Assembly (NCBI GenBank): GCA_001871445.1
Contig: MNVD01000014.1
Location: 28,776-92,775, forward strand
Direction: 5' to 3'
Source: Candidatus Magasanikbacteria bacterium CG1_02_41_34
GTDB taxonomy: Bacteria > Patescibacteriota > Patescibacteriia > Magasanikbacterales > UBA922
Length of the DNA: 64,000 bases
In this document: in pieces, positions 15,641-56,636 of the stretch
How positions within the stretch are numbered: the first letter of the stretch is position 1
How the letters are laid out: each line of letters begins with the position of its first letter
The notes under the pieces: generated by a model
Database searches by the model: none
Seen by the model: the letters and a program-made list of their open reading frames with translations, nothing else
Told to the model about the DNA's origin: nothing
Translations under genes and position numbers: made by a program

Positions 15641-15672
15641 AGCACGTACCAAATGGTACGTGCTTTTTTTTG
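15641..15672 (+). terminator. Rho-independent terminator after ndk.
   Basis: Palindrome agcacgtacc-aaat-ggtacgtgct followed by TTTTTTTT. Confidence 0.6.
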
Positions 15673-16213
15673 TGATCCTGCACGGCGCAGCTTTAGCAGA
15701 GTCGTGTGTGGATAACTCATTTGACCGATAGAAATATATCACGTAATCTTTTAATTAGTATGCATTACATAGAAACCGCAATCCAAAGTATCAAGAAGCA
15801 ACTCCTCCTCGTGGTGAATGTTGTGTTTGGCCGATTTACATGGCTCAATCTCAACATTATTACACCGACTGGGGTGTTGTATGCAGATGGATGCGGATGT
15901 GAAAAATGCGATTGTAAAGGATAACGATTCACACACATACATACAACACCCCGACTCAGAAAAGAGCGGGGTGTTTTATTTCCATACGTCAATTGTTGTG
16001 ATGATATATCGTCGCAACACCAGACAGATGGAAAAAGTTGTTCTTTTACATTGTTGTCGTTCATGTTTTTTCATGATACACAACGTATATTGCGACGCAG
16101 TAAGAAACATATATCCAGATGGATGAGTGTGCACATACATTGCATAGTCATCCGTCTGGATATGACCACCGAGAGCCGGTGATTCATTTTAGACTTCATC
16201 AGGAGGAAGCCAC

Positions 16214-16429
16214 ATGTGTACGGTCAGAACTTGGGAAGGAACTCCCGTGTCAGATGATTTGTACTGGAAGCTCGTCCGATCTGATCGTTCGGGAAATCCT
16301 AACAAGCCCTTTGAGCTTCTTGAGCTTGTGAAGAAGGCTCCGGCGAAGCTCGAGGATCCCGATGCGCGGCTGAACTGGGCACGTCTCCAGAGAGGACGGA
16401 AGAGGCAGAAGGCCAACACCAAGTCCTGA
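16214..16429 (+). CDS. Small GC-rich ORF (71 aa).
   Basis: AGGAGG RBS 7 nt upstream. A 17-bp inverted repeat lies in the upstream region at 16111-16127 / 16147-16163. Antisense ORFs here are judged GC artefacts. Confidence 0.35.
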   Translation: MCTVRTWEGTPVSDDLYWKLVRSDRSGNPNKPFELLELVKKAPAKLEDPDARLNWARLQRGRKRQKANTKS

Positions 16430-16663
16430 ACCTCGGAAAAAGGTACGGCATTCTCCCGCGCCGTGGACCATCTCGCTTGCGAGAACATACTGGTCCGGGC
16501 GTCTTCTCACTGCGTCGCCCACCTCCAATATCTTCATGTTCTTAAAGTTGATAACGTTTGTAACGTTTGTTGGCACCTTCAACAATGTTAGAAATCTCAG
16601 CAACCTCAAACAACATGAAGCTATTGGATGTGGTTCATACGATCAATGTAATTTGTATCTTTC

Positions 16664-16885
16664 TTGACAAGAGATACGTACGCGTTATACTAAGAGCGAT
16701 CCTTCGGACAGCATTATCTCATTCTATACATCTCCCTAGGGTTACCTAGTATCGACTTTGTTTGCTGATTCGTTCAGAGACATTGCTCTGCGGTTGCCCA
16801 CTTGATACACAGGGATGATGATAGCGCTGTCCAATACAAGGATCATGAAGACACAAACCCGACATCCGTCGGGTTTTGTCTTTTT
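16664..16885 (+). ncRNA. Candidate small non-coding RNA of about 180 nt; function unknown.
   Basis: Sigma70-like promoter TTGACA-16/17-TATACT at 16664-16691 and a terminator hairpin acccgac...gtcgggt plus U-run at 16856-16885. No ORF of 60 aa or more between them. Long-range complementarity gatccttcggacagc with gctgtcc..aaggatc. Confidence 0.3.
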
Positions 16886-16958
16886 GAACATAATGCTTGT
16901 ATTTTCTTTCGGTTTCGATATACTTTTGTCACAAAACATGTAGCAAAACCTTCCAAGA

Positions 16959-17032
16959 CGGACTATAGCGCAGTTGGCTAGCGCGCAGGGCTGGGGGTCC
17001 TGAGGTCGGCAGTTCGAGCCTGCCTAGTCCGA
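16959..17032 (+). tRNA. tRNA-Pro (anticodon GGG).
   Basis: CGGACTATAGCGCAGTTGGCTAGCGCGCAGGGCTGGGGGTCCTGAGGTCGGCAGTTCGAGCCTGCCTAGTCCGA. Anticodon loop CTGGGGG, T-loop TTCGAGC. Confidence 0.7.
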
Positions 17033-17043
17033 CAAGTAGTTGC

Positions 17044-18021
17044 TTGATGTCATTGACAAATATACGACAAATTCGGTATAGTTTTGCTTCTATGTACCAA
17101 ACATTGTTGTATTATAAAATTGTTCCAATCAAATATCCCGAGTCAGAGTTGAAAAAGCATCTCGAGGTATGTAAGGCACTTCAGCTGAAGGGTCGTATTT
17201 TGATAAGTAAAGATGGTGTCAACGGAAATATCGGCGGATCGCCAGAAAGCATAACACTGTATCGTGCTTACATGGATGTGCATGAGACATTTCAAAACAT
17301 AGATTTCAAACAGCACGATACAGATATCATGCCATTTCTAAAATTGTCTATCAAAGTGCGAGATGAGATTATAACGACAGAAGCACACAAAGATATTGAT
17401 TGGAGTAATAGGGGAACATATGTTGATAGAGATACGTTTCATCAGTGGTTAAAAAGTGGAGAAGAAATGGTCATCATCGACATGCGAAATGATTATGAAT
17501 GGGCGATCGGGCATTTCAAAAATGCAGTGAAGCCACCAGTAAAATATTTTAGAGAGATCAAACATACGATGGACTACTACGAACAGTTCAAAGACAAAAA
17601 AATTGTCATGTATTGTACTGGAGGTATCCGTTGTGAACCTGCAACTGCACTATTTGTAAAGTACGGATTCAATAAAAAAAACGTGTATCACCTCGAAGGA
17701 GGTATTGTGAAGTATGCAGAAAAGTATGGGAATGAAGGATTTTTTGAAGGAAAATGTTTTACGTTTGATGATCGACTTGCTATTGTTATCAATACGAGCG
17801 ATACTGCGGTCGTCCTCGGCAACTGTGAAGGATGTGGTGTAAATACAGACGAGTATCGCAATTGTTTGAACAAACATTGCAACAAATTATTTATTGGTTG
17901 TGATGATTGTATGGAGAAGACGAATAATACCTGTAAGCAAGCATGTCAGGATAGTATCAAGGATGCCGAGAACATGAGATCGCCACGAGCAAACACGAAG
18001 GCCTTGCATCGAAACAAATAA
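17044..18021 (+). CDS. Rhodanese-domain protein of the UPF0176/YceA family (tRNA uridine(34) hydroxylase TrhO-like) with a Cys-rich C-terminal extension.
   Basis: Rhodanese active-site loop MYCTGGIRCE. C-terminal CxxC-rich segment. True start may be the internal MYQTLL. Confidence 0.6.
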   Translation: MMSLTNIRQIRYSFASMYQTLLYYKIVPIKYPESELKKHLEVCKALQLKGRILISKDGVNGNIGGSPESITLYRAYMDVHETFQNIDFKQHDTDIMPFLKLSIKVRDEIITTEAHKDIDWSNRGTYVDRDTFHQWLKSGEEMVIIDMRNDYEWAIGHFKNAVKPPVKYFREIKHTMDYYEQFKDKKIVMYCTGGIRCEPATALFVKYGFNKKNVYHLEGGIVKYAEKYGNEGFFEGKCFTFDDRLAIVINTSDTAVVLGNCEGCGVNTDEYRNCLNKHCNKLFIGCDDCMEKTNNTCKQACQDSIKDAENMRSPRANTKALHRNK

Positions 18022-56190: not shown

Positions 56191-56240
56191 GTGTTTTTTT
56201 GTATAAAAAAAACAAAGTTGTATATGACTTTGTTTTTTTG

Positions 56241-56327
56241 CGGAGAGTGGAGGATTCGAACCCCCGGTCCTCTTTCAAGGACGACAGTTTAGTAAACTGC
56301 TGCTATAGACCGCTCAGCCAACTCTCC
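56241..56327 (-). tRNA. Class II tRNA (long variable arm), Ser-type; anticodon reads ACU in my fold, which is unusual.
   Basis: GGAGAGTTGGCTGAGCGGTCTATAGCAGCAGTTTACTAAACTGTCGTCCTTGAAAGAGGACCGGGGGTTCGAATCCTCCACTCTCCG. Discriminator G, T-loop TTCGAAT. Anticodon stem GCAGT/ACTGT with loop TTACTAA. Confidence 0.55.
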
Positions 56328-56445
56328 ATATGTCTCTCTGTGAGGAAAGGGTAGAATTCGTTCCGACAGATGTCGGGATTATTGTTCCCTGAAATCCTTC
56401 CTTTTTTTCTTTCAATACGATATTCTTTTTTTGGGAAAAACGTCC

Positions 56446-56531
<86 letters not shown>

Positions 56532-56549
56532 CGATATTTTGATGCACAG

Positions 56550-56636
56550 CGGAGGGATAGGGATTCGAACCCTAGGTGGACTTTCATCCACAACGGTTTT
56601 CAAGACCGCCGCCTTCGACCGCTCAGCCATCCCTCC
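56550..56636 (-). tRNA. tRNA-Ser (anticodon UGA).
   Basis: GGAGGGATGGCTGAGCGGTCGAAGGCGGCGGTCTTGAAAACCGTTGTGGATGAAAGTCCACCTAGGGTTCGAATCCCTATCCCTCCG. Anticodon loop CTTGAAA, long variable arm. Confidence 0.7.

Follow-up and report, generated by a model that had tools for sequence, protein, structure and literature searches.

6S RNA is among the few near-universal bacterial regulatory RNAs, and in Escherichia coli and Bacillus subtilis it is established that it sequesters RNA polymerase and is released through synthesis of a product RNA (pRNA). The mycobacterial 6S-like RNA Ms1 is about 300 nt long and is structurally different from the RNA described here. A canonical 6S molecule is closed by an outer stem, opens into a large central bulge that contains the pRNA start, and ends in an apical stem (PMC8414754). 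Ms1 is described as abundant and structured and as binding core RNA polymerase in place of canonical 6S (PMC11077062). No description of a link between 6S RNA and the candidate phyla radiation (CPR) was found in the literature searched.

The window analyzed here, a 64-kb stretch of DNA from Candidatus Magasanikbacteria (CPR/Patescibacteria), contains a promoter-to-terminator small RNA (sRNA) unit (16664–16885, plus strand) upstream of tRNA-Pro that is very probably a divergent 6S RNA (ssrS-type) gene of this lineage; as such it extends the known family and is not a new kind of system. The initial annotation had read the unit as a stand-alone sRNA with 6S-like architecture, and that reading is supported by conservation of the unit, by covariation, and by the alignment of two members of its family to the Rfam 6S model (RF00013).

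The unit begins with a sigma70-type promoter (16664–16691, plus strand) made up of a −35 hexamer TTGACA (16664–16669), a 16-nt spacer, and a −10 hexamer TATACT (16686–16691); it matches the consensus at 11 of 12 positions, with a predicted start at about 16697–16699. Sigma70-type promoters matching at 9 or more of 12 positions and ending no more than 25 nt upstream of the RNA are found in 34 of 36 family members. The scanned region as a whole holds no excess of promoter-like sites (14 found versus 14.5 expected from shuffles); the sRNA promoter is credible because it is conserved in those 34 orthologues and because the onset of conservation falls sharply and exactly at the −35 hexamer. Within the 5.5 kb scanned, only three sites match at 11 of 12 positions, those preceding ndk (15082), the sRNA unit (16664), and trhO (17053), so the organism appears to use near-consensus promoters.

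At the other end, an intrinsic terminator (16847–16885, plus strand) comprises a 9-bp G+C-rich stem (16855–16876) followed by TGTCTTTTT, with the U-run ending at 16885; the stem extends to a 16-pair hairpin (16847–16883) whose 3′ arm overlaps the U-tract. A hairpin and U-run lie just downstream of the RNA in 32 of the 36 members. Both the promoter, now with its spacer fixed at 16 nt, and the strong terminator had been proposed at the outset, and both stand. The predicted primary transcript spans about 188 nt (approximately 16698 to 16885) around a structured core of 152 nt, sizes that lie within the range of stand-alone 6S RNAs (approximately 150–200 nt).

A scan of genome contigs with TrhO yielded 36 CPR loci. 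Exact NDK and TrhO protein matches place the window among Candidatus Magasanikbacteria genomes from groundwater and Crystal Geyser (GCA_002322435.1 and GCA_002788415.1). The loci obtained in this way (L001–L014) are 100% identical to the window across the region and useless for covariation; in a sister species (L015–L018, TrhO 87% identical) the unit is present at 86–88% DNA identity. Conservation between the window and this sister starts abruptly at the −35 hexamer, the upstream sequence being unrelated, and continues through the terminator into the promoter of tRNA-Pro. A covariance model (R1) trained on nothing but the window copy and a single sister species matched 19 further loci over its full length, always on the trhO strand (E 1e-8 to 0.2), and a metagenome pattern scan contained 13 family members among the 120 matches listed. 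The refined model (R2) has at least 36 members, exactly one per locus, each scoring at least 43 bits, and no other match up to E = 1 in the approximately 1.2 Mb searched. In the 64-kb window the structured core (16695–16847, plus strand) is the only match (173 bits with R1, 107.8 bits with R2). Judged on the sequences, the existence of this family excludes chance as the origin of the unit.

The metagenome-assembled genomes (MAGs) that carry family members are titled Magasanikbacteria or Magasanikiibacteriota, with one Nomurabacteria, one Paceibacteria, and several "Gammaproteobacteria". Searches with R2 within 10 kb on either side of trhO found no member in L019, L024, L027, L038, L046, and L051 or in distant CPR (Peribacteria, SR1/Absconditabacteria, and OLB19; L052–L058), a span too short to carry much weight as to absence from these genomes. 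Canonical 6S was absent from the 20 scanned non-member loci of the pattern scan, which had been tested as a possible general 6S signature. A viral pattern scan gave six matches and no R1 match among them, and thus no sign of a phage link. As a separate observation, the MAGs titled "uncultured Gammaproteobacteria bacterium" (L027, L029, L030, L032, L035–L037, L039–L041, L044, L045, and L049) encode a Magasanikbacteria-like TrhO (53–65% identity); since all but L027 carry the 6S family as well, these titles look wrong.

Folding of 16697–16885 gives a minimum free energy of −73.3 kcal/mol, as against −43.3 ± 3.9 for shuffled sequences (z = −7.6). The consensus derived from the window and the sister species is a rod consisting of a 28-bp closing stem, a central loop, a helix of eight positions, an asymmetric loop, and a terminal hairpin. 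In the window copy the 5′ strand of the closing stem (16696–16725, plus strand) pairs in three segments, 28 bp in all, with a 3′ strand (16812–16846, plus strand; GGGAUGAUGAUAGCGCUGUCCAAUACAAGGAUCAU) assigned from the fold and from covariation. The long-range pairing initially proposed between the 5′ GAUCCUUCGGACAGC and GCUGUCC...AAGGAUC proves correct and closes the fold; in the sister species it shows a compensatory A-U to G-C change at column pair 14:136 together with G-U wobbles.

The central internal loop of the window copy has 13 nt on its 5′ side (16726–16738, plus strand; AUACAUCUCCCUA), unpaired in the consensus, and 12 nt on its 3′ side (16800–16811, plus strand; ACUUGAUACACA), where the family consensus ACCU-N7-UA matches CCCACCUgg of the Rfam 6S consensus. 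A 3-bp mini-helix within the loop is only 60% paired across the family, so the loop is best regarded as open. The apical stem (16739–16799, plus strand) is formed by GGGUUACC and GGUUGCCC, a conserved asymmetric internal loop with UAGUAUC (16747–16753) opposite UGC (16789–16791), and a terminal hairpin with the loop UUCGU (16769–16773). Across 36 sequences, 85–95% of cells are paired in closing-stem helices 1–3, with both-side changes in 26 of 28 pairs; the figure for apical helices 5 and 6 is 89–92%.

Covariation strongly supports the predicted closing stem, large central internal loop, and apical stem. In the sister comparison alone, three pairs changed on both sides and still pair (column pairs 14:136, 47:103, and 61:93), and several others changed to or from G-U. 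The covariation analysis called for in the initial annotation was run on two alignments. In the model-fitted alignment of 36 sequences, 88.4% of cells are paired versus 37–45% in slid-partner controls, and 43 of 48 pairs show both-side changes. Because fitting biases an alignment towards the model used, the count was repeated on 24 diverse members aligned structure-blind with MAFFT: 77.6% of cells are paired (at most 52% in slid-partner controls), with both-side changes in 25 of 35 pairs. With either alignment, none of 500 shuffles reaches any of these measures. RNAalifold applied to the MAFFT alignment recovered the apical stem independently, with compensatory pairs at 12 of 16.

The scan of Rfam suggested earlier was carried out; it gave no 6S match for the window copy, but two homologues match RF00013. 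At gathering score the whole window returned tRNAs only, and at E ≤ 10 the window copy, searched as 701 nt and as 159 nt, gave no RF00013 match and nothing relevant. The 6S assignment therefore reaches the window copy through a chain of homologues. In a permissive scan of nine short loci with family members, L152 matches RF00013 at 269–424 on the minus strand (42.4 bits, E 1.4e-6; gathering score 46.4), and L080 at 603–747 on the plus strand (28.6 bits, E 0.003). Both matches cover model positions 1–187, coincide with the R2 matches, and lie on the correct strand. The seven other members gave no RF00013 match at E ≤ 10 in this 18-kb search, and none of the scanned members reached the gathering score of 46.4 bits.

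In both alignments, the 16 consecutive unpaired nucleotides of the Rfam 6S model line up with the 5′ side of the central loop of the family, and CCCACCUgg lines up with its 3′ side. The most conserved motif of the family, GGGA (5′) and ACCCACCU (3′) flanking the central loop, is the same pair that the Rfam 6S consensus carries (...auaGGGagccc...gggcaCCCACCUggaAc...). Across the 36 members GGG and CCC vary little or not at all, and ACCU is at least 70% conserved; the window copy has GGGU...GCCCACUU, one change from GGGa/CCCACCU. L152 is absent from the sequences on which R2 was trained, is matched by R2 at 49 bits (E 7.6e-9), and has the apical loop specific to the lineage, which makes it a true link from the family to 6S. 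In the reciprocal direction, R2 run on 3 kb around E. coli ssrS ranks ssrS first, with a full-length and co-linear match that is weak (9.8 bits, E 0.28) and not significant on its own, though it agrees with the 6S assignment.

The main competing explanation, which we consider unlikely, is a structured sRNA specific to the lineage that resembles 6S in shape only and has another partner, either a protein recognizing the apical UAUAUYG/YUGC loop or a dimer that binds the two UAGGGA elements of the quasi-symmetric central loop. The absence of an Rfam 6S match for the window copy and the scores of all scanned members below the gathering score would fit such an RNA, as would the unusually strong sequence conservation within helices, an internal loop that is absent from the 6S consensus, and the pseudo-symmetry of the central loop, in which each strand reads helix, AC(A/C), N, UA-GGGA. 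These points are set against the full-length RF00013 alignments of two members, which place the central loop in register, against a most conserved motif that is itself part of the 6S consensus, and against an architecture, size class, and strong housekeeping promoter that all fit 6S. The differences of the family from textbook 6S also leave a small probability of a 6S offshoot specific to CPR, in which the invariant apical UAUAUYG/YUGC loop and the quasi-symmetric central loop would act with a partner, or in a mode, unseen in model 6S RNAs; one example would be the binding of a lineage-specific protein, or of another form of RNA polymerase, in these symbiotic, reduced bacteria.

If the unit is a 6S RNA, its mode of action can be outlined by analogy. 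The rod would mimic an open promoter and occupy the active-site cleft of the holoenzyme of housekeeping sigma and RNA polymerase, and this occupancy would damp transcription under nutrient scarcity. Upon a rise in NTPs or a nutrient upshift, the polymerase would transcribe a short product RNA from the 5′ side of the central loop and the closing-stem strand next to it. This product RNA is predicted to be 5′-AUAGAAUGAGAUAAU, complementary to 16713–16727, and to start opposite U16727; it would then unzip the closing stem and free the enzyme. The pRNA start of E. coli 6S is U44, and the register of the Rfam 6S alignment hints that U16727 may be its equivalent; the corresponding position is C in most family members. 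By analogy with the model systems, we infer that the Magasanikbacteria RNA may bind RNA polymerase and direct product-RNA synthesis.

The gene order of the family is uvrD, ndk, a variable stretch, the RNA, an aminotransferase or tRNA gene, and then trhO. Downstream of the unit in the window is tRNA-Pro(GGG) (16959–17033, plus strand; identified with ARAGORN, 58.2 bits in a local Rfam scan), which has a weaker promoter of its own, read from the sequence as TTGTAT, a 16-nt spacer, and TATACT (16897–16924, plus strand) and conserved in L015–L018. This arrangement raises the question of a cis-acting leader or riboswitch that uses the terminator as an expression platform, with read-through into tRNA-Pro and trhO. 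A terminator directly after the closing stem would suit a leader, as would the frequent position of the RNA upstream of, and on the same strand as, tRNA-Pro and trhO. In the family, however, the gene immediately downstream varies (tRNA-Pro, another tRNA, an aminotransferase, or hypothetical proteins) and so does the distance from the RNA to trhO (0.2–8 kb), which indicates a gene in its own right and not a leader. Further points against a leader are the tRNA of L152, which is on the strand opposite to the family RNA, the conserved tRNA-Pro promoter located after the terminator, a 28-bp closing stem that is not riboswitch-like, and the lack of any riboswitch or T-box family match in Rfam. Regulation in cis is thus very improbable.

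Several further features of the neighborhood were recorded. The ATG start of trhO at 17092 gave exact-protein matches and a TTG start gave none. A tRNA gene, often tRNA-Pro, adjoins the 6S gene downstream in many family members. Between ndk and the 6S gene the sequence varies (window 15665–16660; L015 832–1179; L023 4832–5182): the sister species have a gene of the four-helix-bundle 23S_rRNA_IVP/bAvd family directly after ndk and the window does not, and 15980–16660 of the window has no counterpart in the sister species L015 and L023 and no Pfam match. The annotation of 15980–16660 is inconsistent, with a 71-aa ORF on the plus strand (16214–16429) in some assemblies and a 95-aa ORF on the minus strand in another. 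A possible separate small gene (15721–15980) has a promoter-like TTGACC-N17-TAATCT, a 54-aa ORF (15760–15924, plus strand) with a Cys-rich C-terminal tail (...GVLYADGCGCEKCDCKG), and its own terminator (15945–15980), and is 82–88% conserved in two sister species (L015 1302–1501 and L023 5233–5502). Its ORF looks coding because the stop varies (TAA/TAG) and there is a synonymous GAT/GAC change; the product could be a small metal-binding or RiPP-like peptide. Elsewhere in the window, three tRNA-Ser genes are clustered on the minus strand (56240–56636), one of which (56240–56327) has the unusual anticodon ACT according to ARAGORN. The tRNA-Pro gene (16959–17032) is missing from the whole-window Rfam list at gathering score, yet it is the gene that scores 58.2 bits in the local scan, so speed filters can evidently lose real matches in long inputs.

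The initial statement that the interval has no ORF of 60 aa or more is right for ORFs wholly inside it and fails for ORFs that overlap it: one of 65 aa is antisense (16742–16939, minus strand) and one of 60 aa lies on the plus strand (16567–16749). The former exists as an annotated protein in GCA_002788415.1 (L013 11607–11804) and in a JGI contig (L005 5328–5525), and a small protein-coding gene of this kind is the remaining explanation of the locus. It is an exceedingly improbable one: neither ORF is conserved in the family, where the longest open frame changes strand and length between members; substitutions are compensatory in RNA helices and not codon-periodic; the sRNA promoter and terminator both lie on the plus strand; and neighboring spurious ORFs have no Pfam match. 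Judging from these sequence patterns, the annotated 65-aa antisense protein is probably a mis-call.

Other identities, considered on inspection of motifs, were rejected: a reverse-complement T-box (wrong strand, no covariance-model match), a hammerhead (UGAUGA not conserved), a CsrA sponge (only two GGA motifs, both within helices), a Y RNA or YrlA (no T-arm), and a retron or omega RNA (no nearby RT, TnpB, or IscB; single copy; housekeeping synteny). Inspection by eye had initially found no RNase P, tmRNA, or signal recognition particle (SRP) signature, and the searches agree: ARAGORN finds no tmRNA in the window and Rfam gives no tmRNA match, nor is there a match to SRP RNA or RNase P RNA at gathering score or at E ≤ 10. 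In the metagenome contig L080, positions 480–559, immediately upstream of the 6S gene, weakly match the Rhizobiales sRNA Atu_C8 in Rfam (30 bits, E 0.0025); this is probably a mere terminator-like hairpin.

If the unit is 6S, Magasanikbacteria have retained a strongly promoted gene for it in genomes of about 1 Mb, which would suggest that even bacteria that are very reduced and probably symbiotic maintain global tuning of RNA polymerase. In current annotation, Rfam thresholds miss the gene and an apparently spurious antisense ORF is called over it; the alignment and model would let annotators locate the gene throughout the lineage and remove the antisense "hypothetical protein".

Among described RNAs, the bacterial small SRP RNA (4.5S) resembles the family in being a rod-like hairpin of about 100–150 nt with conserved internal loops near the apex, but the family RNA has neither a GNRA tetraloop nor the AGCAGC/GGAA motif of domain IV, and no SRP match appears at E ≤ 10. 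Ms1 shares the character of a structured, 6S-like RNA that binds RNA polymerase (PMC11077062); the RNA analyzed here, however, has no Rfam Ms1 match and aligns to 6S proper. From 6S RNA/SsrS (RF00013; E. coli ssrS and B. subtilis 6S-1) the family differs in several respects. Its core is about 150 nt long, compared with 184 nt for E. coli 6S, and its intrinsic terminator directly abuts the closing stem. The nearly invariant apical asymmetric loop, UAUAUYG opposite YUGC, lies eight positions from the central loop and is no feature of 6S as modelled in Rfam; the central loop has a quasi-symmetric appearance; and most members are capped by a YGUG (CGUG)/CUUG-type tetraloop, whereas the window clade has an extended hairpin with the loop UUCGU. 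The synteny with the 5-formyl-THF cyclo-ligase gene seen in E. coli is absent, the family gene being located between ndk and tRNA-Pro/trhO. In common with 6S RNA, the family consists of single stand-alone genes with a strong housekeeping promoter, the product being a rod with closing stem, central internal loop, and apical stem, and with GGG.../...CCCACCU at the loop; this architecture agrees with the canonical description of 6S (PMC8414754).
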